Shown here in pieces: positions 1 through 37,577 of a stretch of DNA of 37,577 bases. The notes beneath the pieces were generated by a model. The model was not told the origin of the DNA. It was given only the letters and a program-made list of their open reading frames with translations, and ran no database searches. Both the position numbers and the translations under genes were made by a program. The stretch's first letter is position 1, and every line of letters starts with the position of its first letter. Source of the DNA: a virus (taxonomy: Duplodnaviria > Heunggongvirae > Uroviricota > Caudoviricetes); the IMG/VR virus record IMGVR_UViG_2529292717_000013; one strand, given 5' to 3'.

Positions 1-1002
1 TTACCCTCTATTGTCAAAAGGGTTCAATTCAACAGCAGCCTCTAAATGACCTGGAGCAAAATGCGCATAACGCATAGTCATTTTTATATCGCTATGCCCC
101 AGTATTTTTTGCAACACAAGAATATTTCCGCCCCGCATCATAAAATGACTGGCAAACGTGTGACGTAGCACATGAGTTAATTGCCCATCAGGAAGCTCGA
201 TCTTCGCTCTCTTAATTGCAGCGTCAAAAGCCTCATAACATGGTGAAAATAGCGCTCCTCGTTTTTTAGGAAGCATAGCCTGCAATTGAGGTGAAATCGG
301 TACAGTGCGGTTCTTCTTTCCTTTAGTTTTAACAAATGTGATTCGACCGGGCAGTACTTGAGATTGCTTTAATCCTTCTGCTTCACTCCACCGAGCACCA
401 GTCGCAAGCCCAATACGGACAACAACCCCCAAATCTTTATTCCGTGACTCATCACACGCAATCAGAAGGCGTTCAATCTCATCTACATACAGAAACGCCA
501 GTTCCTTTTCTTCCTCACGAAACTTGCGAATACCAGTCAGGGGGTTTTCACCAGACCACTCCCCAAGGCGCTTCAGTTCGGCAAAAACAGCATGTAGATA
601 TGACTGCTCGCGATTAACGGTTGCTTCACTAAGTTTTTTCTTCCCCTTGGGATTCCATTCTCCTGATAGCCTTCTTTCCCGATAAGTAGCAAACATATTT
701 TTGTCAAACTGCGAAGCAAATGGATCTCCCAGCCTGGAACAAATCGCCTCAAGTTTGACTTTGCGCTCTGCACCAGAGGACAAGGTTTTACCGTACATCT
801 CAAACCAACGAGCAATCAACTCAGAAAGACGAGGACCAGAACCATCTTGAAACTCGTCTCCAACTCTACTATTCATTAAACGGCGCTCATAAGAGAGCGC
901 CTCACTTTTTGTCGCAAACTGTTTACGAATGCGTTTTCCCGATGCCCCGTAGGGATAACATTCGCAAAGCCATTTACCTGATGGAATCTTACGAACCGAC
1001 AT
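1..1002 (-). CDS. int: tyrosine integrase (phage integrase family)
   Basis: 333-aa ORF; C-terminal catalytic region with HxxR and a terminal Tyr motif (LRHTFASHF...MRYAHF); position at the prophage end. Confidence 0.9.
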   Translation of the reverse strand: MSVRKIPSGKWLCECYPYGASGKRIRKQFATKSEALSYERRLMNSRVGDEFQDGSGPRLSELIARWFEMYGKTLSSGAERKVKLEAICSRLGDPFASQFDKNMFATYRERRLSGEWNPKGKKKLSEATVNREQSYLHAVFAELKRLGEWSGENPLTGIRKFREEEKELAFLYVDEIERLLIACDESRNKDLGVVVRIGLATGARWSEAEGLKQSQVLPGRITFVKTKGKKNRTVPISPQLQAMLPKKRGALFSPCYEAFDAAIKRAKIELPDGQLTHVLRHTFASHFMMRGGNILVLQKILGHSDIKMTMRYAHFAPGHLEAAVELNPFDNRG

Positions 1003-1007
1003 TTTAG

Positions 1008-1313
1008 TTACTTATCACATAAATCAAATGCAGCCTTAGTGACATCCCCCAGACTCTTTTTTAACCCTGGGGCGGCATCATTATCTAGCCAAAATGGATT
1101 ATTGTTATCTAACGGTAACGCACCAAATGTTTTACCTTTTATTCGAGCCAAACCTGTAAGTGCATATAACTTATTATCGTCAAAATTCATTACATAAGGA
1201 TTACCATCAAGACACTGTAATTGAACCTCATCAGTATTAAATGGCCACACCCCATTGAAACTCTCACGTTCAATGGTTTTAAAAGGCATTGCGACGGCGG
1301 AAAAAGAAAACAT
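1008..1313 (-). CDS. hypothetical secreted/periplasmic protein, lysogeny-operon cargo; a signal peptide is encoded in the adjacent frame upstream
   Basis: 101-aa ORF; a start at about 1354 in the -1 frame encodes MKVKKVQLLVTFYLCFLF, a typical signal peptide, across a T5 homopolymer. No family recognised. Confidence 0.5.
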   Translation of the reverse strand: MFSFSAVAMPFKTIERESFNGVWPFNTDEVQLQCLDGNPYVMNFDDNKLYALTGLARIKGKTFGALPLDNNNPFWLDNDAAPGLKKSLGDVTKAAFDLCDK

Positions 1314-1383
1314 AGATAAAAAGTAACTAATAGTTGAACCTTTTTAACTTTCATATCATTACCTCAATTTAGCTCAAGTAAGA

Positions 1384-2034
1384 TTACAAATTAAAAAACG
1401 CTCTAGAAATGACACCGCCTACCAACCCCCCTACGCAGATAAAGAATATTATTTCTTTTGGATAAAGTCGGATTAATTCTGAAGCACGAAGTCGGACTTC
1501 TGGTAAGGTCGAACTCTCTGTGTGGCTTGATGCCGATTGTTGCTCTAACCACGACAATGCAGACTGTAACTGAGAACGAGTAAGATCGTTTAAACGTCCT
1601 GTACCGAAATTGATATGGCAATACCGCAGAAGTTTTTGTCGAAGTCCACAGTCTTCACTGTTACGTAGTAATAAACTTACAAGAGCCTTACAGGCATCAT
1701 GATCTTTACATCGCTCAAGCATTGCATGCAGAAAACTCTCCGCTGTTTTATATTGATTTACTGTCATATCATCAATACCAGCTACACCAATCTCCGCATG
1801 TACTTTTTGCCAAATAATAAACGCTTCAGTATTGCTAGCTTCTGCAATAGCAGCAACCAAGCTATTTAGCTCCTTACGCTGAGCCTTAAGCAAAGGGCGA
1901 TCGTCATCATCATTATTCGAAGGGATTGCGATATTGACGGTATGAGAACCATCATATCGCTCTATCTGAATATTCTTTTCGTGAAAATCACGCCCAGCAA
2001 CGCGATTGTTTGAACCGTTTGAGTTGACGGCCAT
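1384..2034 (-). CDS. hypothetical C-terminally membrane-anchored protein, lysogeny-operon cargo
   Basis: 216-aa ORF; hydrophobic C-terminal helix (IIFFICVGGLVGGVISRAFF); N-terminus shares the motif NNR(V/I)AGRD(F/Y)xE with the repressor C-terminus. Confidence 0.55.
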   Translation of the reverse strand: MAVNSNGSNNRVAGRDFHEKNIQIERYDGSHTVNIAIPSNNDDDDRPLLKAQRKELNSLVAAIAEASNTEAFIIWQKVHAEIGVAGIDDMTVNQYKTAESFLHAMLERCKDHDACKALVSLLLRNSEDCGLRQKLLRYCHINFGTGRLNDLTRSQLQSALSWLEQQSASSHTESSTLPEVRLRASELIRLYPKEIIFFICVGGLVGGVISRAFFNL

Positions 2035-2049
2035 GTCACCTCCCTACTA

Positions 2050-2454
2050 TCACCTGCCCTTAGTTTCGTTATAGTCACGACCAGCGATACGGTTATTACC
2101 ACCAGAAATATTTAACTCACGTCCTGATGGCTGAGTTTCCTTTTCACTGATCGCACCTTTTAAAGCCCCAATCACCGCGTTTTTCACATCTAACGAAGCT
2201 GCTCGAAAGCGAGTAATCAACTCCTGCTCATCATCGTTATAAGTTTCAGGTGAGTGAATTCCCAACACAACATACTGAACATCAAGGCCAAAACGAGACA
2301 GCGCTGCCAAATACGCAGCATCAGGAAAGCTATCTCCTTTCTCATATCTAAGCTGAGTTAGCTTTTTGACTCCACCAATGTCGCTCATGGCTACTTGACT
2401 AAGTCCCAATCTTTCCCTTTCCTCACGCAACCGCTGACCAATATCATTTTTCAT
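2050..2454 (-). CDS. HTH_XRE-family immunity repressor (C/CI-like)
   Basis: 134 aa; N-terminal HTH (QRLREERERLGLSQVAMSDIGGVKKLTQLRYEKG); divergent from the early operon, same strand as int. Confidence 0.8.
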   Translation of the reverse strand: MKNDIGQRLREERERLGLSQVAMSDIGGVKKLTQLRYEKGDSFPDAAYLAALSRFGLDVQYVVLGIHSPETYNDDEQELITRFRAASLDVKNAVIGALKGAISEKETQPSGRELNISGGNNRIAGRDYNETKGR

Positions 2455-2463
2455 ACAAAAACC

Positions 2464-2492
2464 TTGACAGGTATCTTTTTTGATACCAAAAT
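2464..2492 (+). promoter_or_regulatory. candidate early promoter (TTGACA-N17-CAAAAT) overlapping a perfect palindromic operator GGTATC-T6-GATACC
   Basis: Read directly in the 75-bp divergent region between the repressor and the first early gene. Confidence 0.4.
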
Positions 2493-2529
2493 GATTTCAC
2501 GAGCTATTAGATGATCACAATATACCACT

Positions 2530-2736
2530 ATGAAACAAGTTCTTCACGATACCAGATCACGCATTCCGCGTAACACCGCCACAGGTCCAAGACTGGCACT
2601 TCGGCTGTCCCTCGAGGAGCGAGCCGTCATTGATGAAATGGCAGCTAAAGAACAACGCTCATCCTCTAACATGGCGCGCATGATCTTCCTTCGCGGCCTA
2701 GAACTAACCCAGAAAGAACAAAACAAATCTTCCTGA
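2530..2736 (+). CDS. hypothetical early protein, first gene of the early operon (possible small regulator)
   Basis: 68-aa ORF immediately downstream of the switch region. Confidence 0.5.
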   Translation: MKQVLHDTRSRIPRNTATGPRLALRLSLEERAVIDEMAAKEQRSSSNMARMIFLRGLELTQKEQNKSS

Positions 2737-2752
2737 TCAAGAGGCTAGTGGG

Positions 2753-2956
2753 ATGTCAGGTATAACCATCAATATCAATGTGAATGCCCCCTATGTATCC
2801 CTGCAGAAATATGCAGAGATAACAGGTATCCCTCTTAATACATGCAAAAAGATGTTGGCTGACGGTCGAATTATTATCCGCCCCAAACGCGCCAAAATGG
2901 AAAAGCCTGAAGTAAACCTTGTGGCGATGTTAAAAGACGCTTTGACTAACAGCTAA
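2753..2956 (+). CDS. Cox/Apl-like HTH excisionase-regulator (tentative)
   Basis: 67 aa; HTH-like segment YVSLQKYAEITGIPLNTCKKMLADGRI; second position in the early operon. Confidence 0.5.
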   Translation: MSGITININVNAPYVSLQKYAEITGIPLNTCKKMLADGRIIIRPKRAKMEKPEVNLVAMLKDALTNS

Positions 2957-2977
2957 AACAATGAACAGAGCACCATC

Positions 2978-3328
2978 ATGAAAAAAAACGCTAATAATCC
3001 ATACTCCAAATTTCGTAATGGCGTAGAACGCCATGTACACCACGTCGCTACCAGTGCATCACGTAGTAACAGTCGCTATAACCTGAACGAGACGCACGCA
3101 ACACCGGATGGCCACGCTGTAAAACAAATCGGCGAGCATGCCTGGCTGATTGAGAAAGCTGGAATCGTGGTCCACAAATGCCCACGCAATCCGTTTACCG
3201 GAAACCGCATTTTTGCTCTAAGCAGTGGCGACAATCAGTTCGGGCAGGATTTCACATTATACGAAGCACTTCGCACGGTTGATCGTCTGCTTCGCGGGCA
3301 AAGTTTTATTAAACAGGCTGATTTATAA
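2978..3328 (+). CDS. hypothetical early protein
   Basis: 116-aa ORF in the early operon. Confidence 0.5.
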   Translation: MKKNANNPYSKFRNGVERHVHHVATSASRSNSRYNLNETHATPDGHAVKQIGEHAWLIEKAGIVVHKCPRNPFTGNRIFALSSGDNQFGQDFTLYEALRTVDRLLRGQSFIKQADL

Positions 3329-5813: not shown

Positions 5814-8633
5814 ATGACGGCAGAGTACATCAGGGACTGGCAACAACCGCGCCACGCAGTGGGGCGTGAAGGAACGGGGATCCCCGCTCCTGAATCCGCG
5901 CTTTCCTCCTGGCTGGATGCCTACCGGGCAGAGAACGAGCGCCGCCAGGAAATGGCTGATGCGGCGTTCTCCGCCACGCCGCTGGGCAACCTGATTAATA
6001 AAAGCCTGGACGCACAGGAAAAACAGGACAAAACCATCACACTGGCAGGAGACGCCAGAAAACAGGCACGTGGCGCGGTGGATGAAGCCATGGCCTCGCT
6101 GCGCCTGCTGCCGTCCTATCTGCGCGATCCGCTTATTCGCCACCTCTCCTTCCTGCGCAAAAAACAGGAAGCCGATCGCCGGAAAGGCAAAAAGAGCTGG
6201 CAGGCTGAACGCTACGCGCGCGGGACCCTGCGCAAAATATTCGAACGTCTGGATCGCACTGACGGGCGCTGGCTGACACCGGGTTATCGCTCCCTTGCCG
6301 GGCGCGAACGCCTGGACGATTTGCTTTACCTGCCGCAGCTCAACAAGCACCAGATACAGACGCTGGCCACCATGACGGCGGCGATGTTCAGCAGCACCTT
6401 CGAAAAACTCTGCGATGGCTTTGGCGCGACTGATGGCGAGCTGACCATGGATGTAACGCTGAAGGCTTATCAGATGCTGGCCCGCATGGCGTTACACCTG
6501 CACGCCATGCCTCCACATTATGACGCACTGACAACAGACAAAGACCGGAGGAACGAACCGGACACGGAGCTGCTGCCGGGCGCAATCCTTCGCTTGACCT
6601 GTGCGGAATGGTGGAAACGCAAACTATGGCTGTTGCGTTGTGAGTGGCGGGAAGAACAACTCCGCGCCGCCTGTCTGGTTTCCAGAAAAACATCCCCCTA
6701 TCTGAGCCAGGACGCGTTAAGCGAGTTTCGCGCACAGCGCGAGAAAACACGCGATTTCCTGAAAAGTTTCATGCTGGAAAATGAAGACGGGTTCACGATT
6801 GATCTCGAGACGGTGTATTACGCGGGAGTAAGTAACCCGGTTCACCGTAAGGCAGAAATGATGGCCACCATGAAGGGGCTGGAACTTCTGGCCGAAGCCC
6901 GTGGCGACAAAGCGGTGTTTCTGACTGTCACCTGCCCGTCAAAATACCACGCCACAACAGAGAACGGTCATCCGAACCCCAAATGGAACGGGGCCACCAT
7001 GCGCGACTCCAGCGATTACCTGGTTAACACGTTTTTTGCGGCGGTCCGCAAAAAACTGAACCGCGACGGCCTGCGCTGGTATGGCATCCGCACGGTGGAG
7101 CCTCACCATGACGGCACTGTGCACTGGCATATGATGGTCTTTGCACATCCGGACGAGATTGAAACCATCGTGTCCCACGTCTGCGATATTGCCATTCAGG
7201 AGCCGCCACGAGCTGGGCGATGACATAACTCCGCGTTTTAAGGCGGAGTACGTGACGGCTCAAAAGGCACACCAACCAGCTACATCGCCACCTACATCGG
7301 AAAGAACCTGGACAGCCGCGCCGTGGATGGCATCGACCCGAAAACGGGCAAGCCACGCGTTGACCACGAAACCGGAAAATCAATGGCCGAGAGCGTGGAA
7401 CGCGCCATCGGCTGGGCGCGCCTTCACCGGGTCCGCCAGTTCCAGTTCTTTGGCATCCCCTCCCGTCAGGTGTGGCGTGAACTCCGCCGCCTTGCCAGCC
7501 AGATGGCACGCAACCCGGAAGGCCCGCAACGGCTGAAGGATGACGCAATGGATGCGGTACTCGCTGCCGCTGATGCAGGATGTTTTGCCACCTACATAGA
7601 GAAACAGGGCGGCGTACTTGTTCCACGCAAAGACTACCTGATTCGCACCGCCTACGACCTCGCCGATGAGCTGAACGATTACGGCGAACAGAGCGTACAG
7701 ATTTACGGGATCTGGTCACCACTCATCGGGGAATCCTCCCGTGTGTGCACGCATCCGGATAACTGGAAGCTGGTAAGACGCAAACCGGAAGCGGAAGACA
7801 GCGCCCGCGAAAATGGTTTTGACCTTCAGGGCGGCCCTGCCGCCCCTTGGACTCGTGGCAATAACTGTCCCCGTGTACAGGAAACAGGCAACAGCGGGAC
7901 AGAACAGTCGAAAGAACGGCCAGCACCGTGGCCGCAGCTTCCTGACGGCGTTGAAGTGAACGAATGGATGCGCTCACTGAAACGGCACGAACGCCGGGCG
8001 CTGATGCGTTCGCTTCGTGACAAACAGGTAAAAAACAGCAGTGATGAAATGCAGAGCTGGACACAGAGCCGCAAACAGCAGCGGCCTTTGCCTGATAACC
8101 ACGAATTACTCGCTAAAGAATGGCGGGAGTCTGCCGAATCTCTCGGCCTGCATATCGGTGAACAGCAGATGCAGCACCTGCTACGGGGCGGCAGCCTGTA
8201 CGTTGACGGCAGCATCATTGCACCGCAGGGATATGAAATTGTACGCAAACCGGATACCCGCCCGGACAGCCGAATCACGCAGCTCTGGCAGCACCTGAGC
8301 CGTAATCACGGCGTAAGCAGCACGGAGATCCGCCATAACCCGGTCGCCAGCTATCTGGCACAGCTGGGGGCATCAGACCCCGAAGCCGCCGCACGCCTGG
8401 CATCCGCACTTCAGCAGGATCAGAACACCATGAAAACACCCGTTACCGTGCTTTCTGACATGCTGCGCGCCATCCGCGACGCAGAGCACGCACAGAGAAT
8501 CAGTGAAACCACTGAACGCGCCAGCCGCAAAGCAGACCTGCTGCAGGGTGGCCTGACCAGTGGAAACAAAAAACAGACAGAAACGGGATCCACAAATCCC
8601 GTAAATGAGCAAAAAACGCGCCGCGATATATGA
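5814..8633 (+). pseudogene. A: replication initiation endonuclease A (rolling-circle initiator, GPA family); frame interrupted at about 7195-7270
   Basis: Track ORFs 5814..7223 and 7323..8633 are in the same frame, separated by in-frame TGA (7221) and TAA (7239), while the +1 frame is open across the gap. HWHMMVF and YIATYIGKNLD motifs present. Confidence 0.8.
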
Positions 8634-8709: not shown

Positions 8710-9669
8710 ATGAAAATTTGTATCGACGACGGCTCCACCAACATCAAGCTGGCATGGACTGAGAACGGCGAACGCCGCAACGCCATCAGCCCGAACAGCT
8801 TCAAGTCGGAATGGTCTGCGCCGTTCGGTGGCACGCATCCCGCGAACTACATGCTTGATGGCGTGCGCTATGGCTTTGATCCGGTCAGCGATCGTTTTGT
8901 CCAGACGACTGACACGCAATACCAGTACAGCGATGTGAATGTAATCGCCATTCATCACGCGCTGGTCAAATCAGGCATCACGCCACAGGAGGTGGATGTG
9001 GTTGTCACCCTGCCACTGAGCGAGTATTTCGACACAAACGCACAGCCGGACATGGCCAACATCAACCGCAAAAAAGCGAACGTCATGCGCCCGGTGGAGT
9101 ACCAGAACGGCGAAGCATTCACTATCCGTAACGTACGGGTTATGCCTGAATCCATTCCGGCTGGCTTTAAGGCACTGGCTGACATGAGTCCGTTTGAATC
9201 CCTGCTGATTGTGGATTTGGGCGGAACCACGCTGGATGTGGCAAAGGTTCAGGGGCAGCTGGCAGGTATCAGCCAGGTGTTTTGCGATCCAAACGTAGGC
9301 GTTTCCCTGATGGCTGATGCCGTGCTGTCGGTGATGGCCACTAACGGTATGCGTACCAGTCACCACATCGCCAATACCATTATTGAGCACCGTCACGATG
9401 AAGCCTGGCTGCGCCAGCACATTCACAATGACGCGCATTACAACAGCCTGATGGCGGTTATTCGTGAAAAGGAGGAGACACTGAAACAACGAGTGATCCG
9501 CGCGCTGGCGGGTTTTTCCGGTTACGGGCGGGTGATGGTTGTCGGTGGAGGGGCGGAGATTGTGGCACCCGCTATCCGCGAAGCCTGCGGAGTTAATGCG
9601 ACTTTCATCGCGGACGGGGTGCCACAGTTTGCTCTGGTTAATGGGCTGTACGCAATGAACAAGGAGTAA
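8710..9669 (+). CDS. parM: actin-like segregation ATPase ParM/StbA
   Basis: 319 aa; N-terminus MKICIDDGSTNIKLAW and downstream blocks closely resemble plasmid R1 ParM as remembered. Confidence 0.85.
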   Translation: MKICIDDGSTNIKLAWTENGERRNAISPNSFKSEWSAPFGGTHPANYMLDGVRYGFDPVSDRFVQTTDTQYQYSDVNVIAIHHALVKSGITPQEVDVVVTLPLSEYFDTNAQPDMANINRKKANVMRPVEYQNGEAFTIRNVRVMPESIPAGFKALADMSPFESLLIVDLGGTTLDVAKVQGQLAGISQVFCDPNVGVSLMADAVLSVMATNGMRTSHHIANTIIEHRHDEAWLRQHIHNDAHYNSLMAVIREKEETLKQRVIRALAGFSGYGRVMVVGGGAEIVAPAIREACGVNATFIADGVPQFALVNGLYAMNKE

Positions 9670-26366: not shown

Positions 26367-29201
26367 TCAATCTTTATCGTAAAAACTGCCACGCCCGGCA
26401 CGGGCGCGCCGTTCCATTTCTGCCCTGACCATTTCACCGACCAGTTTCGCCAGTTCGCGGGGATTCTGTGTAACAACGTTATGCAGATGAACATGAATTT
26501 CACCGCCAAATCCGGAGGCAACAGGCTCCCGGTTACGGGAAGTTGCAGGAACTGATGCCACTGGAGATCGTATGGCCTCTGCCACCGGGCGGGAGCTGGC
26601 CGCAACAACAGGGACCAGCGCCGGAGGCAGCGGAGCCGGAACCACGGGTGTGATATTAATTGCGGGGGCAGGCTTACTGACCTGCGCAATCTTCCGCTCC
26701 TGCCACTCCCCACGAACGGCAAGTGCGCGGGGCAGGTTCTTAAAGACAATATCGCCGGGGCCAATACGTTTTTTCGTCTCATCAACCAGCTTACCTGTGT
26801 TATCAGCAATTTTGCTGAGTCTGCGTAGCGTACCGGTATTGCTGTCTGTGAGTGGTTTGTTGTCTTTGGGTTTATCACCTCCGGTGCCATTGCCATTTTC
26901 CACAGGCTTCGGCGGATTGATTTTCGCCAGGTCTCCCTGAAACAGAGCAACCTTGTCCTGAAGAATGGCCGCACGCTGTGCGTCTTCGATTTTCTTGCTC
27001 GCCCTTTCAGCTTCATCCGGAAGGACGCCAAGTTTTTCAAGTATCCACGCCAGCGTATCCAGTAGCATTTTTGCAGGTGTCAGAACAAGCTGTAACGCAC
27101 CGCCAAGAACGTTACCGAATATCTCGCCAGCACTGGTACATTTATCCAGCGTTTCCTTGCTGGACTCCATCGGTGACAGCAGCGATTTAAACCAGTTAAA
27201 CACCTGACTTATCCCGCTTCCGATTGCGTCAAAAACAGGACCAAACCGTTCAAAGGTTTCGCGTAACGGGGCCAGCCGCTCCATAATCCCGCTGAACACC
27301 CCGGCATAAAACGCCTTGATGGGTTCCCAGTATTTCCAGATGAGAACCGCCGCAGCCACAAACGCAGCAGCAATCAATCCGACCGGGCTGAACAGCGCCC
27401 CGATAGCGCCCCCCAGTAACGAAACGGAACCCGTCACCATTCCCCATAGTGCTGGCAGGAGCCTGACAGCATTCATTGATCCGGTCAGGAGAGAAAAACC
27501 AAGACGCAACGTGGCCAGCTTCCCGTGAAGCACTCCAATAACCAGCGACAACGAGCCAACCGTTGCAGTCATTGCCAGCAGCGCACCGCCTGCTATCAGT
27601 AACTGGCGCGTCAGTACCGGATGGGCCTGTGCCAGCGCCGTCACCTTTGAGACCACCCGCGTGAGCCACTGCGTGACAGAACGCAGCGGACCATCAATCA
27701 GATCTGCAATGCGGATACGCAGCCCTTCCCATGCACTGCCGAGTGATTTCAGGTCGCCATCAAGGTTATTGGCCATAACCTTTGCCGTGCGTTCAGCCTC
27801 ACCGCGTGCGCCCTCAAGTTCTTTTCTCAGTTTGGGCAGGGAGCCGTCACCCGCCGCATCAACGAGAGCCATAAACGACGTGAAAGCCTCTTCCCCGGCA
27901 ATGTCCTTAAAGAACGATACCCGGTCAACTTCCCCGTATTTGCGGGTGGCTTTATAAAGGTCAGCCAGCAGATCTTCCATCGGGCGCATTTTGCCGTTCG
28001 CATCAGAGACGGACACACCCAGCTCTTTCAGCGCCTCTGCTGCTGCCTTTGGCGGTGATGCCAGACGAGCCAGGCTGGCACGCATTGCCGTCCCGGCATC
28101 ACTCCCTCTGATACCCATATTCGCCAGCACGCCGCCATCGCTGCGCCTGCTCCAGCGATATTCCCAGCTTACCCGCCACCGGACCGCATATTTCATGGTT
28201 TCGCCCAGTGCGCGAAGGTCAGTGTTGGTACGGGTAAACGCTGCAGTGAGTGTGTCACCGACCCGGTCCATCTGGTCAGCGAAGGCCGAACTGCGTCAGG
28301 ATATTTGAGCCAATATCGCCGTCTCGCCAGTCCATACCGCCAGCCGTTGCCATGCTCACACGCCGGGAAGCGCAGCCTGAATGGCCTGCGGTGTGAAGCC
28401 AGCCATTGCCAGAAATGCCTGCCCACTGGCGGCATCGCCTGCGGTGAACTGCGTTTCAGAGCCAAGTTTTAACGCCTGCTCACGCAGCGCCTTAAACTGC
28501 GGGCTGTTTTTGTCGATTCGCGTCAGTGCCTGAACGCGGGACATCTCTTTCCCGAACCCGATCGCAGGCTGCAAAAAACGCCCGGCAGCATAGCTGCCAG
28601 CCGCTGTCGCACCAATTGCCAGCGCACCACCTGTTTTCAGTTTTCCCGCTGTTTCCTGCGCACGCGAATACCGCTCACGCGCCCGCGTTACACGCGCAAG
28701 CGACTGCCGTTCGCGTTCAAGCTGGTTGTTGTACTGCTCGGTGCGTCTGATGGCCTGCTGGATGGTGTTATCGCTGCCTGTCAGGGAAATGCCGTGGCGT
28801 TTCAGCTCTCCGCCAAGCTCCCGCATTTTCTGAATTTCCCGTGTGCGCGATTCATTCAGGCGTTCAAGCCGGGTGCTTAACTGCTGCATCAGCTTTTGTT
28901 GCTTTTCGCTGAGCACTGTACCCGTGCGTTGTAACTGATTAAGGGCGTTAAGCTGGCGTCGTGCTTTCACGATACCCGCATCCGCTTTACTGACAGCGTC
29001 GCGGGCGCGCTCAAATGAACGCGCCTGACGCTCGAGATTTTTGATCGCCCCCTGCGTTCGCTGGATGGAGTCACCAAACTGCCCCATCAGGCGGCGGGCG
29101 TTTTCGGCAGGCCGGGTCAGCCTGTCAACGGCGCTGAAAGCGACCCGGATATCAAGAGTCTTCATTGTCTGCATTCCCGCTGCGAAGTGCCGCCCGCTCA
29201 C
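26367..29201 (-). pseudogene. T: tail tape-measure protein T; compensating pair of frame changes at about 28285-28355
   Basis: Track ORFs 28356..29201 and 26367..28271 are in the same frame; the conserved segment between them (VSMATAGGMDWRDGDIGSNILTQFGL) is in another frame. Confidence 0.85.
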
Positions 29202-29735: not shown

Positions 29736-30248
29736 TCAGCCAAGCCCAAGCGCGGAACGGATGCGATCGGGCACAATGTCCTTGCCGTCCTTCCGGTAAA
29801 TGAAGTTCAGCAGGTCAATCTCCCACAACGGACGATCGTTAACACTCAGCTTGTAGTAGGTGTTTTTAATGGCGTAAGTGTGTGATGTGGCTTCGCCCTG
29901 TTTGGCTTCCCCCATATCAATTTCTGTCACACGTCCGCGCATTTCGACTTCATACAGGTCGCTTTCTGCATCGGTGTAGTATTCACCCGCAAAACGCAGC
30001 AGCGTGCCGTCAATCGTGCCGCCATACTTCAGGAACAGCTCACGAACTGCGCCCCCCATGACAAAGCTCGCATCAAGCGCGGAGTCGTCCAGACCGAGAT
30101 CAATACTTACCGCACCCATCATGCCACCACCCCGGTAGCTGTCGGTTTTGCGCGTCAGCTTAGGCAGAGTGACGGACGTCACCTTACCCACTTCGTTTTC
30201 ACCATCCACAAACAGCGTAAAAAAGCGAAGATGTTTTGGCACAGCCAT
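29736..30248 (-). CDS. FII: tail tube protein FII
   Basis: 170 aa; MAVPKHLRFFTLFVDGENEVG...YRGGGMMGAVSIDLGLDD like P2 FII. Confidence 0.85.
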   Translation of the reverse strand: MAVPKHLRFFTLFVDGENEVGKVTSVTLPKLTRKTDSYRGGGMMGAVSIDLGLDDSALDASFVMGGAVRELFLKYGGTIDGTLLRFAGEYYTDAESDLYEVEMRGRVTEIDMGEAKQGEATSHTYAIKNTYYKLSVNDRPLWEIDLLNFIYRKDGKDIVPDRIRSALGLG

Positions 30249-31429
30249 CAGGCACCTCCCAGCACCGCAAATGCAGGTTCAAAGTATTCATCAGTAAACG
30301 TCTGGTAAAGCTCCATGTCTTCCAGTGGCGGAACAGGCGTATATTTGTAGCGAATACGCACACGCCCCTGACGTAAATCCGTGGTGCTGTTATCCACCAC
30401 GTCATACCAGCACTCCGCGCCAATCAGTTTCCCGGCAGTAACCAGTGAATCCAGTTTTGCCCTGATGGCACTGATAACATCCTTCACGTTCGCAGGCGTC
30501 AGTGGACTGTCGATGGTTTCAAACTGCGCTTCTGCAATTGAATCAGCCAGCACCTGTGCGGTTCGGGTATACACCTCAAAGATGTAGGCGTTCGTTTCCG
30601 GTGTGCGGTTGCCCCAGAAGCGGAACCCGTTGCGACGAATAATGGTCGTGATTTCTTTGTTGTTGAGGCTGTTGGCATCGCTGTCTTCGGCCTGCAACGA
30701 CCAGAACACATGCCTCGACATCCCCAGCACATTTTTAACCGGAACGTTGGACAGCGATTTGTGCCAGCCCTGCTCATGGTCAATGTACGCACGAAGGCCG
30801 CACGCATAAGCAGGCGCGGGGAACGTTTCGTTTTCGCCACTTTTCGGGTTGTAGGCGATGAAGTCCGGCCATAAGAGCATCACCTCACGTTCGTTGAATT
30901 TCTGGCGGTAGGTAATCGCTTCAGCCATCGTGTTACAGCCGTGACATGAGGCATACACAAATGCGCGCAGTTTACCCGCAATCACGCACAGGGATTTTGT
31001 CACCGCCTCCGTGTCCAGCTCCGGCGCGGCCAGAATACGCGGACGGTATCCGATGCTTTCATCCTGCTCTGCAACAAGCAGCGCATACATCCCCGTATAG
31101 CTGCCGTCATCCTCAGAACCACCGATAACCAGTTGATCCTGCGTTTTCGTCTTCTTCTTTGTGTTCAGCCACGCGAACGACGATCACCTTTGTGCTCACC
31201 TGGTCTGCGATGGCCTTAAGCGCACGATAAAGCGTCCCCGTTGTCCGCATTTTCCCAGCACGTCATTGACGCGGGTCAGCAGTGTGGGCTTGTTCAGCGG
31301 GAACAGCTTCGCGTCCGCATCATCCGCCGTTGCCACGATACCGATAACGCTGGAATCAACATCGTTAATCGCTGTTACCAGGTCGGTATTTTCCGTAACA
31401 CGGGCACCATGAAAACGAGTTTCACTCAT
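30248..31429 (-). pseudogene. FI: tail sheath protein FI; compensating pair of frame changes at about 31140-31245
   Basis: Track ORFs 31196..31429 and 30248..31090 are in the same frame; the conserved middle segment (TLYRALKAIADQVSTKVIVVRVAEHKEEDENA) is in another frame. Confidence 0.85.
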
Positions 31430-31585
31430 AGCTTCAGCCCCTTGTATCCGTTAAATGATTCGGCAACAATCATCACCCACCACGCGCGTAATCTCACCCC
31501 TGCGCCGTTCTCCCGCCACGGCGACAACAAAAAGCAGTACCCCCCTCCGCACGCACATGCGACCATGCCGCACAGGGAGGGAAAG

Positions 31586-32689
31586 ATGACCGACACCACC
31601 ATGCAATTGCTCAGTCAGGGCACAGACCCCGTGAAAATGCCGGATTTTGATATTCTCGCCGAGGGTAAAACGCTGTCCGGCGTGGCAGAACGCCTGATGA
31701 GCCTGTCACTGACCGACAACCGGGGATTTGAGGCGGACCAGCTCACCATCACGCTGGATGATGCCGATGGCCAGTTGCAGCTACCGCCACGGGGCGCGCG
31801 TCTGACGGTTCTCATTGGCTGGAAAGGAGAACCGCTGACAGAAAAAGGCACTTACATTGTTGATGAAATCGCTCACGAAGGACCGCCGGACAGGCTGACT
31901 GTTTCAGCCAGAAGCGCAGATTTTCGGGATGAATTTAACGTTAAACGTGAGGTGTCCTGGCATGATGTGACCGTTGAGCGTGTGGTATCCGCCATCGCTC
32001 ATCGGTACGGTCTGAAACCGCAAATCAGCGAAATGCTGATGGATATCGAAATCGACCACGCCGACCAGACCGAAGAAAGCGACATGTCCTTCTTACGCGC
32101 ATGGCGGAAATGCTGGGCGCAATCACCACGGTAAAAAGCGGAATCTGTTATTCATATGCCGGCGGTGGCGTGAACGCACAGGGCCAGCCGTTGCCATCGT
32201 TCGCCATCACCGCAGCAGGGCGATCGCCATCAGTTCCGCATTGCTGACCGCGAAGCGTATACGGGGGTACGCGCTTACTGGCTTGATCTTAATTACGGGA
32301 AAAAGAAAAAAGTCAGCGTGAAACGCCGCAAACCGCCAAAACCCAAAAAGGAGAAAAGCAGCAGCCGTGAAGGTGATTATATGGAAGGCGCGGAAGGAAA
32401 TGTGTTTGTGTTACGCAAGACTTATCAGAACGAGCAGGCAGCAAGACGCGCAGCGGCGGCAAAGTGGCAGCAGCTACAACGCGGAGCCGCATCATTCTCC
32501 ATCACACTGGCACGTGGACGAGCAGAACTCTACCCCGAAATGCATGGCACGGTAACAGGATTTAAAAGCGAGATTGATAATCAGGACTGGATTATTGCAA
32601 AAGCCGGGCACACCATTGATAACAGCGGCTTTACCACGCAGCTTGAGCTTGAGGCAAAAATCCCGGAATGGATAGCGGAAACAGAGTGA
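31586..32689 (+). pseudogene. D: tail protein D (late control gene D family); compensating pair of frame changes at about 32095-32225
   Basis: Start at the ATG after a GGGAGGG RBS (MTDTTMQLLSQG...); conserved segments in frames 2, 1, 2; C-terminal part is track ORF 32318..32689. Confidence 0.8.
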
Positions 32690-32731
32690 GCAACTTAGAA
32701 TAGCGGCAGCACCACGTTAAGGGAGGTCGCT

Positions 32732-32992
32732 ATGTTCCGTTGTCCGCTTTGTGGCGCATCTGCCCGTATCCGCACCAGTCGTCCGGAAAATGATTCAAAC
32801 ACCGTGCGGCAAAAGTATTACCAGTGTAACAACCTGGAATGCGGCATAAGTTTCTCAACACTGGAAGCTTTCCATAAATTCACATCGAAACACGCCTCCG
32901 GCGTTCACTCATCAGAAGGTATCCCGTGGCATGAGCTGCCAGCTTCACACAGGGGAAACAATCAGATGAGTTTGCCTTTATCTCAGAATTAA
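32732..32992 (+). CDS. ogr: Ogr/Delta-type zinc-finger late transcription activator
   Basis: 86 aa; MFRCPLCGASARIRTSR...YYQCNNLECGISFSTLEAF matches the Ogr C-x2-C...C-x4-C pattern. Confidence 0.85.
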   Translation: MFRCPLCGASARIRTSRPENDSNTVRQKYYQCNNLECGISFSTLEAFHKFTSKHASGVHSSEGIPWHELPASHRGNNQMSLPLSQN

Positions 32993-33182
32993 CAGGCAGA
33001 ATTGCCGGAGTAACAAAAAAGCGATAGATTACGCGCGGGTGCCTTTCGGCTGATGGTCGGAGGGAATACCCGAAGGCCAGATGTGGAAAGGCCCCGGAAA
33101 ACATTTCTGTTTAACCGAGGCCCTAACCGTCTAACCTTAGCAAGTGATAGGTTAGCGCCTCCCTGAAAAAGGAGCAAGCGCT

Positions 33183-33323
33183 ATGTCGCAAAAATCGCTT
33201 ACGGCCATCACGTTCTGCGTGACGGCAATCCTCATCATCTGGATGCTGCACGGTTCGCTGTGCGAAATACGGATGAGCTTCTGGGGAGCGGAGTTTGCGG
33301 CGTTCTTACAGTGTAAGCAGTAA
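33183..33323 (+). CDS. hok: Hok/Gef-family type I toxin (small membrane protein)
   Basis: 46 aa (below the track cutoff): MSQKSLTAITFCVTAILIIWMLHGSLCEIRMSFWGAEFAAFLQCKQ, with N-terminal TM and SLCEIR / AAFL motifs as in Hok proteins. Confidence 0.7.
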   Translation: MSQKSLTAITFCVTAILIIWMLHGSLCEIRMSFWGAEFAAFLQCKQ

Positions 33324-33385
33324 GGAAACCGCGACGGGGGAGCAATCCCCCGTCAATCGGTTGCCAGGGTAAGGTCGATAAGGCA

Positions 33386-33396
33386 CCCTATCTCAC
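33386..33396. repeat. left copy of the 11-bp direct repeat CCCTATCTCAC (putative target-site duplication)
   Basis: Abuts the left inverted repeat; identical copy at 34896-34906. Confidence 0.5.
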
Positions 33397-33510
33397 CAAT
33401 GCCGTTCAGTTAGTTAAGGAATTGAGGTTCGATAGCCCGAACCTCGCGCAGAGGCAATATGACCGAAAGCCTGATTCCTTAATGCCCAAGATGAGTCTCT
33501 ATTCATAAAA
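33397..33510. repeat. left terminal inverted repeat of the cassette
   Basis: CAATGCCGTTCAGTTA...ATGAGTCTCTATTCATA; internally folds as TTAAGGAAT...[GAGGTTCG-ATAGCC-CGAACCTC]...ATTCCTTAA. Confidence 0.6.
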
Positions 33511-33732
33511 GCGCTTAACTACTCGACATTGGCGGTGTATCCCCCGCATTGTCTGAATGCCGCCTCTTACCTTTCGCGGTCAACTGACGACTTCTAGTTC
33601 TAGAACGCCTTGATTTTTTGTACTTGTACATTGAAAAATAACCATAAATTGTTAGCCTGTGCAGTAGACTCAGTGGCGGTAACTGGTCAGCATGAAGTGT
33701 AAAGTGAATAACGAAGCTCTAAAATTATAGGG

Positions 33733-34566
33733 ATGGTCATGAATAATAAGCTAAAGGTAATTGAGTTAAATAGTCTTGATCTGTTTCGTAAAGAATTACT
33801 AACTACTATAAAGCCAGAGAAAGTAGAGAAATTACTTAGATGGTATCTTCAATCATATGGCGGTGTTAATTTCAAGTTCGGTTATGACAGACCAATTTTT
33901 AGAGCGCGAAAGTGCCCAAATGAATGCGGATATAATAACATCAGTGAGATATATCCCCCTCCACCAGAAAAATGTAAAATAGGCCGAATGAATGATGATG
34001 GACAAGCTATCTTCTATGGCGCTTATAGTATCGGAACAGCTTTAGCCGAAATTAATGCAAAAGAAGGGGATTATGTTCACATAGCTCACTTTAAGATGCC
34101 GGAAAATTCAGAGTCTGGAATGCGATGTTTTGCTATCGGTGAGGTCTTTAATGTGTATCACGGTGTAAATACAATTTCAATTGAAGTGTTTAATGAAATT
34201 CGCGACATCATTAGCAGAATTGGTAAGGACGACATCCGAGCTTTGCTATCATATTTGTATATGGATGCCCTTTCTGCTGAGTTGCTTAATAGTATCAATG
34301 CCCATGAGGTAAATTATATTTACTCAAGAATTTTTTGCCGTCTTCTTCTTGATAAATACCCTGATGTTGATGGCCTTATTTATCCTAGCGCTAAAATAAA
34401 AGGGGCCTCAAATATCGCTTTGCGCACAGAAACAGTTAAATCGAGAATGCATTTAGTTGCTAATCTTGTGTTTAAAGTAAATAAAATTTATCCATATGGA
34501 ATAGTAGATTTCAGTATAGTAAAACAAGCCAAAGGACATACATCAGATGGGCGCATCGTTTGGTGA
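33733..34566 (+). CDS. RES-domain protein (putative NAD+-targeting toxin-like effector), solo
   Basis: 277 aa, AT-rich; GRMNDDGQAIFYGAYSIGTALAE and DGLIYPSAKIKGASNIALRT resemble the R...E...S motifs of RES domains (recalled). No adjacent Xre-type partner. Confidence 0.5.
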   Translation: MVMNNKLKVIELNSLDLFRKELLTTIKPEKVEKLLRWYLQSYGGVNFKFGYDRPIFRARKCPNECGYNNISEIYPPPPEKCKIGRMNDDGQAIFYGAYSIGTALAEINAKEGDYVHIAHFKMPENSESGMRCFAIGEVFNVYHGVNTISIEVFNEIRDIISRIGKDDIRALLSYLYMDALSAELLNSINAHEVNYIYSRIFCRLLLDKYPDVDGLIYPSAKIKGASNIALRTETVKSRMHLVANLVFKVNKIYPYGIVDFSIVKQAKGHTSDGRIVW

Positions 34567-34726
34567 GCCAAACTTTTAGTTAGCTGATTGAAAAACCGAT
34601 GCGTCAGTTTGCACTGCATGTGGTGTATGGGAAGCGCGGGCTTGTAGTGCAGGTCATTTCAGAAGAAGCTAACGAGAAAGCTTAGACATACTGTGACTAC
34701 TAAACAAGCAGAAAGCCCGTGTTTAT

Positions 34727-34746
34727 GGGGGGGAGGGGGGGGGGGG
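34727..34746. repeat. homopolymeric tract G7-A-G12
   Basis: Read directly; lies inside the cassette just internal to the right inverted repeat. Confidence 0.7.
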
Positions 34747-34785
34747 CAATCCCCACAACAGGCGATGTCGATTAGTTAATACACT

Positions 34786-34895
34786 TGTATGAATAGAGAC
34801 TCATTTTTGTGCATTAAGGAATCAGGCTTTCAGTCATCTTGCCTCTGCGCGAGGTTCGGGCTATCGAACCTCAATTCCTTAACTGAACTACATTG
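34786..34895. repeat. right terminal inverted repeat of the cassette
   Basis: Reverse complement aligns to the left repeat with a few mismatches and one 4-bp indel. Confidence 0.6.
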
Positions 34896-34906
34896 CCCTA
34901 TCTCAC
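34896..34906. repeat. right copy of the 11-bp direct repeat CCCTATCTCAC
   Basis: Abuts the right inverted repeat. Confidence 0.5.
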
Positions 34907-35093
34907 AGCTCTAAATGCAAAAATCCCATGAAACTGTGGGTATTTCATCACACACTGACACTGCTCTACCTTTCTATATGTATCACTCTAAACCAGTTAA
35001 TCAATTGGCACTTATCAACAACAAAAAATCTGATAAAATCAAAATGTTTTGTAACAAATTTCAGCTTGTAGTGTTCCAAAGGAGACGGATTAC

Positions 35094-35426
35094 ATGGCAT
35101 TAATCAAATGTCCTGAATGCCAGAAAGAGGTCAGCGATTCAGCATTATGTTGCCCTGCTTGTGGTAAACAACTGAAAAAACTTAAGCGTTCATTTTTTGG
35201 AAAACTCATTAAATGGGCTTTTATATTTTTTAATATTTTTATGATCTATACACTTTTAGTTGGACTAGGAGGCGCTGATGAAATAATAAACAATACCACA
35301 TCCGATGCCGAAAAAGCTGGGGCAGTTATTGGTACGGGCTTAGGTTTAATTGCCATTGGAGGCTTATGGGTTATTGGCGATATCATTATCGGAATTTTAG
35401 TATTTCTTACTAAACCAAAGGGATAA
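35094..35426 (+). CDS. zinc-ribbon membrane protein (N-terminal CPxC...CPxC, two TM helices)
   Basis: 110 aa; MALIKCPECQKEVSDSALCCPACGK then hydrophobic segments; AT-rich. Confidence 0.55.
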   Translation: MALIKCPECQKEVSDSALCCPACGKQLKKLKRSFFGKLIKWAFIFFNIFMIYTLLVGLGGADEIINNTTSDAEKAGAVIGTGLGLIAIGGLWVIGDIIIGILVFLTKPKG

Positions 35427-35430
35427 TAAA

Positions 35431-36324
35431 ATGAAAAATATGATTTTTTCTATAGGTGCATTATTTATATCAATTAGTGTACTGCCTGTTCACGCAGCAA
35501 CTGAACATAAGAATTTCAATGCAGTGCTCCAGTGCCGAGCGATAGAAAACAATAAAGACAGACTTTCTTGTTACGATAAGTCAATACAACCGACTCGAAC
35601 GAAAGTTGCTGACAAATTTGAAAGCAGGGATCAATGCCCTGATGAGAAAGATGATGACAAACGTTTATCTTGTTATGATCGTTTTTTTTCTCCAACATTT
35701 ACTCCATCTGTAAACTCAAAATCTAAAACGGAAAAGCTAGTAACAACAGAGGCTCAGCAACCAAATCTTTCTGAAATATCTAAATGCCGAGCAGAAAATG
35801 ATAAAGAAACCAGACTAAACTGCTACGATAAACTATTCCCACAGGATGAAGCTGTTCAATCTGAATCACAATTAGAGAAAGCCACAGATGCAGGAAAATG
35901 GCACACGTCCATTACTACATCGCCAATTGATGATTCGAAAAATGTAATTTTATCGTTAGAAAGTGATGATTATATCAGAACTCCATTTGGAGAAGCTGTT
36001 ACTCCCACTCTGTTTATAGCTTGCCGAGAAAAGAAAACCGAAGTATTTCTTAGTTGGGATGTATATTTAGGCCTTGAACAAACCAGCATGCTGTATCGTC
36101 TTGATAAACAGAAAGCAGTTGAAAGAAACTGGCTAATATCTACAGATACAAAGGCTGTTTTTTATAAAGGTAATGATATTGATTTCATAAGAAAACTTGC
36201 CAACTCACATAAAATGTACACAAAAATAACCCCCTATAATGAAAGCCCTGTAAGTGCAACTTTCAATTTAAGCGGCCTGTCAAATGCACTAAAACCGCTT
36301 CAAGATGCTTGTAACTGGAAATAG
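35431..36324 (+). CDS. secreted protein with three RL(S/N)CYD(K/R) repeats
   Basis: 297 aa; signal peptide MKNMIFSIGALFISISVLPVHAA; repeats DRLSCYDK, KRLSCYDR, TRLNCYDK; AT-rich; 4-bp gap to the upstream gene. Confidence 0.55.
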   Translation: MKNMIFSIGALFISISVLPVHAATEHKNFNAVLQCRAIENNKDRLSCYDKSIQPTRTKVADKFESRDQCPDEKDDDKRLSCYDRFFSPTFTPSVNSKSKTEKLVTTEAQQPNLSEISKCRAENDKETRLNCYDKLFPQDEAVQSESQLEKATDAGKWHTSITTSPIDDSKNVILSLESDDYIRTPFGEAVTPTLFIACREKKTEVFLSWDVYLGLEQTSMLYRLDKQKAVERNWLISTDTKAVFYKGNDIDFIRKLANSHKMYTKITPYNESPVSATFNLSGLSNALKPLQDACNWK

Positions 36325-36342
36325 TATATACCTCCCCAATAT

Positions 36343-36385
36343 CAGATGACAAAACGCCCGTGAAAACGGGCGTTTTGTCATCTGT
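36343..36385. terminator. long perfect hairpin (19-bp stem, GAAA loop), probable bidirectional terminator
   Basis: CAGATGACAAAACGCCCGT-GAAA-ACGGGCGTTTTGTCATCTG. Confidence 0.5.
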
Positions 36386-36581
36386 AACTCGAAAATGTGG
36401 TCATTGCGTGGACATACGATGATATAAATCCTTTTATATCAAAAGATTAAACCACTATTATTTTCCTCAACAAGGATTTTCACGTTTGTGTTACCTGTAT
36501 GAGACGAGAGTTAACCGGACAAGTGTGCCATAATCTCGCGGCCAGGCATACTTGCGAAGATTTCAGGTATAAGGATACGTA

Positions 36582-37577
36582 ATGATACAACCTATTTCCG
36601 GCCCTCCTCCTGGGCAACCACCAGGTCAGGGAGATAACCTGCCGTCTGGCGCGGGCAATCAGCCTTTATCCAGTCAGCAACGTACTTCGCTGGAAAGCTT
36701 AATGACGAAAGTGACCTCACTGACGCAACAGCAAAGAGCAGAACTGTGGGCGGGTATCAGGCACGATATTGGTCTGTCGGGAGATTCACCGCTGCTTTCG
36801 CGTCACTTCCCTGCCGCTGAGCATAATCTGGCGCAACGTCTGCTGGCCGCGCAAAAAAGCCATTCTGCCCGCCAGCTTTTAGCGCAATTAGGGGAGTATT
36901 TACGTCTGGGGAATAATCGTCAGGCGGTCACGGATTATATCCGTCATAACTTTGGTCAGACGCCGCTGAATCAGCTCTCACCGGAGCAATTAAAAACCAT
37001 TCTCACCCTGTTGCAGGAAGGGAAGATGGTTATTCCGCAACCACAGCAGCGCGAGGCGACCGACCGTCCTTTATTACCGGCGGAGCACAATGCGCTAAAA
37101 CAGCTGGTGACCAAACTTGCGGCGGCAACGGGGGAACCCAGCAAACAGATCTGGCAATCGATGCTGGAACTTTCCGGGGTGAAAGATGGCGAGTTAATTC
37201 CAGCGAAACTGTTTAACCATCTGGTGACCTGGCTACAGGCGCGTCAGACGCTAAGCCAGCAAAATACGCCGACGCTGGAATCACTACAGATGACGCTAAA
37301 ACAACCTTTAGATGCCAGTGAACTGGCGGCGTTATCGGCATATATCCAGCAAAAATATGGTCTTTCTGCGCAATCATCGCTTTCTTCTGCCCAGGCCGAG
37401 GATATTCTTAATCAGCTTTATCAACGGCGGGGTAAAGGGATTGATCCGCGTGTTATGCAACCGCTGCTTAATCCTTTTCCACCGATGATGGACACGTTGC
37501 AAAATATGGCAACGCGTCCCGCGCTGTGGATACTGTTAGTCGCGATTATCCTGATGCTGGTCTGGCTGGTTCGTTAA
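36582..37577 (+). CDS. flk: flagellar regulator Flk (C-terminally membrane-anchored)
   Basis: 331 aa; Pro/Gln-rich N-terminus MIQPISGPPPGQPPGQ and C-terminal TM anchor, matching E. coli Flk as remembered. Confidence 0.7.
   Translation: MIQPISGPPPGQPPGQGDNLPSGAGNQPLSSQQRTSLESLMTKVTSLTQQQRAELWAGIRHDIGLSGDSPLLSRHFPAAEHNLAQRLLAAQKSHSARQLLAQLGEYLRLGNNRQAVTDYIRHNFGQTPLNQLSPEQLKTILTLLQEGKMVIPQPQQREATDRPLLPAEHNALKQLVTKLAAATGEPSKQIWQSMLELSGVKDGELIPAKLFNHLVTWLQARQTLSQQNTPTLESLQMTLKQPLDASELAALSAYIQQKYGLSAQSSLSSAQAEDILNQLYQRRGKGIDPRVMQPLLNPFPPMMDTLQNMATRPALWILLVAIILMLVWLVR

Follow-up and report, generated by a model that had tools for sequence, protein, structure and literature searches.

The rexAB genes of phage lambda and the superinfection exclusion (sie) genes of lactococcal phages are exclusion or moron genes carried in lysogeny modules. 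In phage TP-J34, the sie gene ltp is located between repressor and int, on the same strand (PMC3952083). For P2-like phages, two switch arrangements have been described, int-C-cox and the 186-type int-cI-apl/cII (PMC3448106). Here we describe the lysogeny module of the IMG/VR virus record IMGVR_UViG_2529292717_000013, a stretch of 37,577 nucleotides (nt) that is referred to in its full length as the window. This window represents an Escherichia coli prophage of the P88-like type (Xuanwuvirus, Peduoviridae), with Escherichia phage 520873 as closest phage record. In this module the repressor gene is not adjacent to int, but is separated from it by 1047 nt with two genes, one open reading frame (ORF A) of the DUF2511/YebY type and one (ORF B) for a membrane-anchored protein related to the flagellar regulator Flk. 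P88 and the prophage of strain W284 display the plain int-C-cox arrangement, and the module of the window thus adds an alternative immunity cassette as a third type, with the Flk-like gene as its constant component.

The two intervening genes had been pointed out in a preliminary description of the locus, which placed them on the same strand between int and the repressor, within the repressor-int operon. Both statements are borne out: the genes are read from the minus strand at the expected place (Table 1), and they are conserved coding genes rather than chance ORFs, with PHROG matches for ORF A (phrog_2950, E 4e-35) as well as for ORF B. The description of the second product as C-terminally membrane-anchored likewise agrees with a hydrophobic anchor at the end of ORF B (AlphaFold helix 192-214). 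That neither protein matches a family no longer stands, however, since ORF A belongs to DUF2511/YebY and ORF B carries the N-terminal domain of Flk.

Linkage of the Flk-like gene to the repressor gene is close to invariable. The Flk-like protein yielded 86 loci, of which 6 are in species genomes and 80 in IMG/VR contigs, and relatives of the repressor led to 77 further loci. An XRE repressor gene is located upstream on the same strand in all 86 Flk-like loci, at a distance of 2-18 nt in 85 of them and of 88 nt in a single decayed symbiont copy. Approached from the repressor, a Flk_N gene lies directly downstream in 75 of the 77 loci; of the other two, one is cut by the contig end and one (L161) carries a partner of another type. 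The pairing recurs in P2-like prophages of Yersinia, Tatumella and Dickeya, in Mu-like prophages of Pseudomonas (with rve transposase and Mu Gp27), and in unclassified contigs. Phage records with the repressor/Flk-like module are prophage-derived only, without an isolated, characterized phage among them, and the GenBank set holds no isolated phage with the Pseudomonas-type gene. A described repressor/Flk-like pair was not found in the searchable literature.

The second line of evidence is a motif of about 17-25 residues that is common to the C-terminal tail of the repressor and the N-terminus of the Flk-like protein. In the window, the repressor end ...LNISGGNNRIAGRDYNETKGR and the Flk-like start MAVNSNGSNNRVAGRDFHEK... 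share 10 of 17 residues (BLASTP). This pair has a local score of 62, which none of 2000 shuffles reaches (shuffle mean 20.4, z 9.2). Across loci the body of the repressor diverges to 35-56% identity with the tail retained, and the strict form NR.AGRD is present in 81 of 86 repressor tails, the remaining five being off by one or two residues. On the side of the partner, the N-terminal motif is retained down to about 27% identity. The motif itself takes at least five forms (NR[VI]AGRD, NNVQIG, VGQ..G...G.I.I, F.A.RDIVN and QIAG..IY), and tail and N-terminus change together: scores between them are 33-63 if both come from one pair or class and 12-33 if they come from different classes, with shuffle z values of 4.2-13.6.

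Such matching pairs are found in phages of very different kinds. In a Ralstonia P2-like phage (L093), the repressor tail INGGSNNVQIGSV is matched by the partner N-terminus ITDGNGNVQIGKV, and in a Pseudomonas Mu-like prophage (L100) the corresponding sequences are IHGDVGQYVEGPVDQTGITIQVG and IHGNVGQATSGDIHNYGIQINLA, with a second Mu-like prophage (L099) similar to it at both ends. Two unclassified contigs display the pairs QVFHGKVGQSIAGNVDQRG and QVFREDVGQAVAGDLVNSG (L103) and QTFNAPISGGEFAARDIVNHG and QEFNNQIHDGQFAGRDIVNNI (L104), and a group of P2-like prophage contigs (L169-L176) the pair NNTIRGEGQIAGGNIY and DNTAEQIAGRDIY. A further case is L161 (IMG/VR 2558860217_000004, 2880..3300), in which a zinc-ribbon protein with transmembrane segments replaces the Flk_N gene. 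This protein starts with MTDFNVGGNNNRVAGRDYHEH, containing the NNRVAGRDY motif, and the repressor next to it ends in FTVSGDNNRVAGRDYKGK (score 66, z 13.6). Presence of the motif on a zinc-ribbon membrane protein indicates that it is a portable module on membrane partners. Elsewhere, a small membrane protein encoded downstream of a distant Flk_N gene (L098:707..1003) has the N-terminus VTVVGDNNITASGDLNIGLAEG, which looks like yet another motif of this general type.

In the two motifs of the window, five of nine identical residues are encoded by different codons, and 27 of 39 nt are identical, indicating that the likeness is maintained at the protein level. Origin of the motif as a recent DNA duplication or as a recombination linker was rejected on account of this difference in codon usage. 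Fusion of repressor and partner by read-through or frameshifting was rejected as well, the spacers of 2-18 nt being not consistently in frame and three stop codons lying between the two genes in the window. There, in-frame TAG TAG follows the repressor TGA, and after GGAGGTGAC the Flk-like gene starts with its ATG in this same frame.

Several comparisons place ORF B in the Flk family, at some distance from Flk itself. The match to the NCBIfam profile for Flk (NF007987) has an E value of 8.6e-16 and 58.1 bits, below the equivalog cut-off of 353 bits, and aligns residues 37-166 with positions 20-149 of the 339 in the profile. An alignment of ORF B against true Flk proteins by hhalign gives a probability of 97.4% and an E value of 1.3e-11 for residues 40-166, at 25% identity over 127 columns, and homologues of ORF B bear the precomputed Pfam family PF27202 (Flk_N). 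The AlphaFold model, built with a 21-sequence alignment at a mean predicted local distance difference test (pLDDT) score of 70.7, is disordered at the N-terminus (1-45), which is followed by a helical domain (50-172) with a pLDDT of about 80 and, after a linker, by a terminal helix (192-214). Most homologues stop directly after this hydrophobic C-terminal helix. The predicted topology would thus place the protein at the cytoplasmic face of the inner membrane, held by its C-terminal anchor. Foldseek of the model against the PDB gave no match below E 0.001, a profile search of solved structures returned none for the Flk-like family, and a viral scan with P0147 gave no match.

Taken together, the invariable linkage to the repressor and the co-varying terminal motif indicate that the Flk-like gene is part of the switch module and not an add-on. 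We lean, by a modest degree of confidence, toward a module that couples the repressor to the membrane and is joined by one exchangeable and here inactive moron, in which both the binding and its effect on the switch would be as predicted from sequence. The N-terminal motif of the Flk-like protein has a pLDDT below 50 and is therefore probably disordered when alone. Direct association of repressor and partner is the simplest explanation, because the motifs are terminal, on the cytoplasmic side, unstructured in the models, and co-varying between lineages. The disordered N-terminus of the Flk-like protein and the tail of the repressor would bind through their common motif, either by like-with-like pairing of the two motifs or by competition of both for one site on Flk_N, the partner's own N-terminus then acting as an internal mimic. 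In this way the membrane might tether or sense part of the repressor pool and would thereby set the amount of free repressor and hence the induction threshold or the immunity. Sequestration of Mlc at the membrane by PtsG is an analogous case of regulator sequestration, and antirepressors are likewise comparable. Since the end motifs of repressor and membrane protein match and co-vary, this logic is directly testable.

A number of observations weigh against coupling of the repressor to the membrane. The repressor was assigned as such by position and family only, and its Pfam (HTH_31, HTH_19 and HTH_3) and NCBIfam matches are all below cut-off. Both motifs are unstructured in monomer models, although the repressor model is a single-sequence one with a pLDDT of 45 and uninformative. 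Tail and N-terminus do not match in one Pseudomonas pair (L101, z -0.1), a Flk_N protein without HTH neighbor is present in L102, and the repressor and Flk-like genes of the Ralstonia phage are neighboring but convergent. In Dickeya, a secreted-protein gene lies between repressor and partner. Finally, near-identical E. coli prophages account for many of the 163 loci, which leaves perhaps a dozen independent lineages.

A more far-reaching version of the coupling has three parts, which taken jointly we consider doubtful. A short self-recognizing, possibly amyloid-like motif would wire the master repressor to a membrane-anchored sensor; a signal from the membrane or the export gate would lead to capture of the repressor and then to induction or abortive death, without the SOS pathway; and the module would be common to P2-like and Mu-like phages of several proteobacterial orders, with the host Flk, whose gene adjoins a P2-like attachment region in the window itself, as its domesticated descendant. 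Non-SOS routes by which signals reach the switches of temperate phages are poorly understood, and the module offers a compact, widespread and genetically tractable pair.

The first of the competing explanations is that the Flk-like protein acts as Flk does. Flk (Fluke, RflH) regulates the secretion switch of the flagellar type III system in Salmonella and E. coli, and in Salmonella it keeps the export apparatus in its early mode and interacts with the C-terminal domain of FlhA in a two-hybrid assay (PMC13344023). In lysogens, the phage protein would bind the same domain and alter flagellar assembly or FlgM export, implying motility conversion or protection from flagellotropic phages, with the motif being secondary. 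The N-terminal helical domains are homologous, as reflected in the hhalign probability and in 28% identity of ORF B to the host Flk, and both proteins are cytoplasmic and anchored in the membrane at their C-terminus (ORF B by AlphaFold; Flk, PMC13344023). Nevertheless, we consider this explanation unlikely. The NCBIfam score stays far below the equivalog cut-off, and the 216-amino-acid (aa) ORF B product has one copy of the domain, whereas Flk, at 331-333 aa, has two. ORF B is encoded behind a repressor in a prophage immunity operon and has the N-terminal AGRD motif, which is absent from Flk, and action on flagella does not by itself account for the strict repressor linkage or the co-variation of the motif. 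The partner in L161 has the motif without Flk_N, indicating that the motif, and not Flk_N, is the common denominator.

The window holds both relatives at once, as the host flk gene is its last gene (Table 1), set in the same flanking island as in E. coli W284. The identity of 28% between ORF B and the host Flk extends over 124 aa, and the single domain of ORF B aligns to both halves of the host protein (BLASTP). In 65 complete E. coli genomes, flk adjoins a region of P2-like prophage insertion (pdxB-flk), in agreement with a phage origin of flk. Flk has long been known but is mechanistically unclear; its membership in a mainly phage-borne family hints at its source, and the one-domain phage relatives are simpler objects of study than Flk itself.

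Next to be considered is that both genes are ordinary cargo of the lysogeny operon, as the preliminary description had proposed, and that their surface or membrane products would block superinfection or convert the host without a role in the switch. Their same-strand position between repressor and int is that of ltp in TP-J34 (PMC3952083), one product is secreted in its intact form and the other is membrane-anchored, and DUF2511 genes have been noted beside recombinase and CI-repressor genes in Enterobacteriaceae (PMC8689200). For the slot next to int the idea fits well. In the 86 loci, 322 to 1850 nt separate the Flk-like gene from int, with unrelated contents, and among relatives the slot holds at least eight unrelated gene types or none, being empty in a Yersinia-type relative (220-nt gap). 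DUF2511 fills it in a near-identical E. coli clade and in L004, L056 and L081, and almost nowhere else. In other loci the slot codes for a protein of the BRCT-WYL type (12 loci) or for an acidic protein of 108 aa (7 loci), and further occupants include a zinc-ribbon protein, a membrane protein of 244 aa and a TerB/BRCT protein. Given this variability, DUF2511 is a true cargo gene or exchangeable moron. For the Flk-like gene, cargo status is improbable: it is invariable in P2-like and Mu-like phages (86 of 86 and 75 of 77 loci), an exclusion role leaves the motif it has in common with the repressor unexplained, and the bulk of the protein is predicted to be cytoplasmic, not at the surface, as for Flk (PMC13344023). 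PADLOC defense models match neither ORF product, and the DUF2511 copy is frameshifted. The term cargo therefore holds for the DUF2511 gene, in its variable slot and inactivated here, and fails for the Flk-like gene, which should not be classed as cargo in annotation.

The slot next to int emerges as a hotspot in which small accessory genes are found, including those of the YebY-like, BRCT-WYL and TerB/BRCT types. The commonest cargo other than DUF2511 is a 295-aa protein with an N-terminal BRCT and a WYL-like region (L007, L055, L066-L068, L072, L073 and others). A 298-aa TerB/BRCT protein in the slot partly matches the candidate defense family PDC-S48, and the slot may be a small hotspot of defense genes. 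A secreted family of 135-137 aa occurs between the repressor and the Flk_N gene in Dickeya zeae (L096:2520..2927) and also in the slot before int of another phage (L075:4706..5119), indicating that accessory genes can enter the operon at more than one point. In the Pseudomonas Mu-like prophages, a predicted lipoprotein gene comes after Flk_N (L099:3638..4165; L100:3613..4020), which parallels the secreted DUF2511 after the Flk-like gene in E. coli.

ORF A matches DUF2511 (PF10709) with 28.9 bits, above the cut-off of 21. YebY itself resides in the periplasm, has a disulfide between Cys48 and Cys113, and resembles the lantibiotic-resistance protein MlbQ, the function of the family being unsettled (PMC8689200). 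Similarity to its structure 7N0J is weak (phmmer E 0.0027, 21 bits), but both cysteines align, namely Cys48 and Cys113 of the intact 115-aa form of ORF A. This intact allele starts with MKVKKVQLLVTFLSMFSFSAVA/MPFK and has a typical Sec signal by inspection, so that its product is predicted to be a small, disulfide-bonded periplasmic protein of the YebY type. It differs from YebY in lying outside the yobA-yebZ-yebY copper operon, on a prophage. In the literature searched, no description of DUF2511 in phages was found, the only related mention being the remark on genomic context in the YebY paper (PMC8689200).

In the window, the DUF2511 copy is inactivated by a frameshift. A T5 run replaces the T6 of enterotoxigenic E. 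coli (ETEC) H10407 within the region coding for the signal peptide, parting the start codon and n-region from the remainder of the signal peptide. For this reason the ORF starts inside the signal peptide, and the phrog_2950 profile is covered only from position 13. The preliminary description of ORF A as periplasmic thus applies to the intact, secreted allele and not to the copy in the window. RefSeq labels the identical copy of ETEC-2264 a frameshifted pseudogene, and the T5 allele is present in 3 of 454 complete E. coli genomes. An artefact confined to the window was rejected, T5 being common to three RefSeq genomes, with the caveat that the window has other indels that these three genomes lack.

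Amyloid-type signaling, as in abortive infection (Abi) by Bab/Agp of an E. coli prophage, has a similarly small chance of explaining the pair. A cross-beta motif of one protein would template that of the other, resulting in aggregation of the repressor (induction) or in activation of the membrane protein (cell death). The resemblance lies in a portable motif of about 20 residues, of several families, at the C-terminus and N-terminus of adjacent products, as in BASS/Bell/NLR and Bab/Agp (10.1101/2020.01.06.895854; 10.1101/2024.11.07.622273). In the repressor module the motifs abound in G, N and Q and contain alternating hydrophobic residues, one variant has a RHIM-like VQIG (the BASS3/RHIM core being G-phi-Q-phi-G), and the motif is modular across partner domains and unstructured in monomer models. 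This likeness of composition is partial, however, and charged residues (RDYNE) are abundant in the enterobacterial variant. Neither NLR and Bell nor other domains of cell-death effectors are present; an XRE HTH protein and a tail-anchored Flk_N protein take the place of NLR, TPR-PIN or Bell proteins as partners, and Flk_N is a regulator-type helical domain with a single anchor and no pore former. Hardly likely, finally, is a motif that serves as a tag for recognition by a third factor, for instance a protease or an antirepressor of the phage, for co-regulation or with the membrane protein as decoy, without mutual binding. The motif is located at exposed termini of both proteins, and the repressor tails end in basic residues, as do many recognition tags, but such a factor would have to vary along with at least five variants of the motif in different phage families and hosts, and no candidate gene is conserved alongside the pair.

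The natural reading of the minus-strand genes is a single operon from the repressor promoter through the Flk-like and DUF2511 genes to int, which would be co-transcribed. This reading is based on short spacers (repressor to ORF B, 15 nt; ORF B to the start of the intact allele of ORF A, 29 nt; ORF A to int, 5 nt), on a ribosome-binding site at each start, and on a scan of 1..3000 that found no terminator-like site on the minus strand. The same scan gave two weak promoter-like sites on this strand (Table 1), of which the one upstream of int could be an internal int promoter or a chance match. On the plus strand, a candidate promoter-like site TTGACA-17-CAAAAT is located at 2464..2492 within the divergent control region, ahead of a rightward set of Arc-like, Cox-like and DUF4761 genes. 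The integrase is 100% identical to that beside yecA in ETEC-2264.

Table 1. Positions of the genes and sequence elements discussed, numbered along the window
Feature	Coordinates	Strand	Basis or remark
Repressor C-terminal tail motif (residues 114-130, LNISGGNNRIAGRDYNE)	2065..2115	-	Kept while the body diverges
Flk-like N-terminal motif (residues 3-19, VNSNGSNNRVAGRDFHE)	1978..2028	-	Common to the repressor tail
Flk_N helical domain (residues 40-166)	1537..1917	-	hhalign range
C-terminal transmembrane anchor (residues 192-214)	1393..1461	-	AlphaFold helix; hydrophobic C-terminus conserved
ORF B (Flk-like), 216 aa	1384..2034	-	phrog_5825 E 2e-102
XRE-family HTH protein in immunity-repressor position, 134 aa	2050..2454	-	PHROG repressor/regulator families E 2.5e-14
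Repressor/Flk-like spacer, 15 nt, Shine-Dalgarno GGGAGGTG before the ATG	2035..2049	-	Direct reading
ORF A (DUF2511/YebY)	ORF 1008..1313; with out-of-frame start at 1354: 1008..1354	-	Pseudogene
Homopolymer run, T5 on the coding strand, one base short of T6	1318..1322 (plus-strand A run)	-	Alignment with ETEC H10407
Tyrosine integrase, last gene of the lysogeny operon	1..1002	-	Pfam Int_N E 5e-32, Phage_integrase E 2.5e-22
Weak sigma-70-like site ATAACA-17-GATAAT, 9/12	1108..1080	-	Inside the DUF2511 gene, upstream of int
Weak promoter-like site, 9/12	164..137	-	Inside int
Divergent control region, repressor versus early operon	2455..2529	.	Between the two operons
Arc-like gene	2530..2736	+	Divergent from the repressor
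Cox-like gene	2753..2956	+	Divergent from the repressor
Host flk gene, 331 aa, last gene of the window	36582..37577	+	NCBIfam Flk equivalog 502 bits, above cut-off 353

The stretch 1003..2049 is found in 511 of 5426 complete E. coli genomes (~9%), among them ETEC H10407 and O157 strains, with one copy per genome and nearly all copies chromosomal. The prophage copy in the window displays frame-breaking indels in essential genes (replication gene A, tape measure) that are absent from close relatives. Replication gene A (5814..8633, plus strand) is broken around 7200..7260, with stops at codons 470 and 476; compared with ETEC-2264, a 2-nt deletion is followed 51 nt later by a 1-nt deletion, with a short out-of-frame stretch between. 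The tape-measure gene (26367..29201, minus strand) has two in-frame stops at codons 282 and 302. The tail sheath ORF (30248..31090, minus strand) encodes 280 aa as against 394 aa in W284, and the gene D region (31241..32689, plus strand) is split in two ORFs; both look broken. With several essential genes disrupted, the prophage copy is probably defective, or the sequence has indel errors.

The two ends of the window resemble different prophages. Its left end (int and immunity cassette, 1..1002 side) is of the type adjoining yecA in ETEC-2264, and its right end (32700..37577) is of the type found at pdxB-flk in strain W284, with ogr, Hok/Gef, a RES-family NAD+ phosphorylase, a zinc-ribbon protein, a TagO/VasI-like gene and flk. 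The W284 prophage at pdxB-flk itself differs in its int and carries a plain C-cox switch. The window gives the appearance of a recombinant between two P88-like prophages or of a chimeric assembly; indels and ends from different chromosomal contexts together indicate a copy that is either defective and recombinant or imperfectly assembled. Following replication gene A, a ParM/StbA-type actin-like plasmid segregation gene is present at 8710..9669 on the plus strand (E 3e-82), which is an unusual accessory for an integrating P2-like phage; in W284 a partitioning/stability gene comes after it.

Compared with the P2- and 186-type switches, the module of the window occupies the same genome position and consists of divergent lysogenic and early operons, with int as the final gene of the lysogenic operon and an opposing Cox-like gene. 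In contrast to them, its repressor is a 134-aa protein of the XRE type with a tail motif, an Arc-like gene precedes the cox-like gene, and one fixed and one variable gene separate the repressor from int. With ltp, rexAB and the sie genes, the intervening genes have in common a position in the lysogeny module, placed for expression in the prophage state, and products at the membrane or the surface. The Flk-like gene differs from these in being not optional, in a product that faces the cytoplasm and matches no PADLOC model, and in the motif common with the repressor. The repressor-partner module is a variation on known principles, namely antirepression, membrane sequestration and motif-coupled gene pairs.

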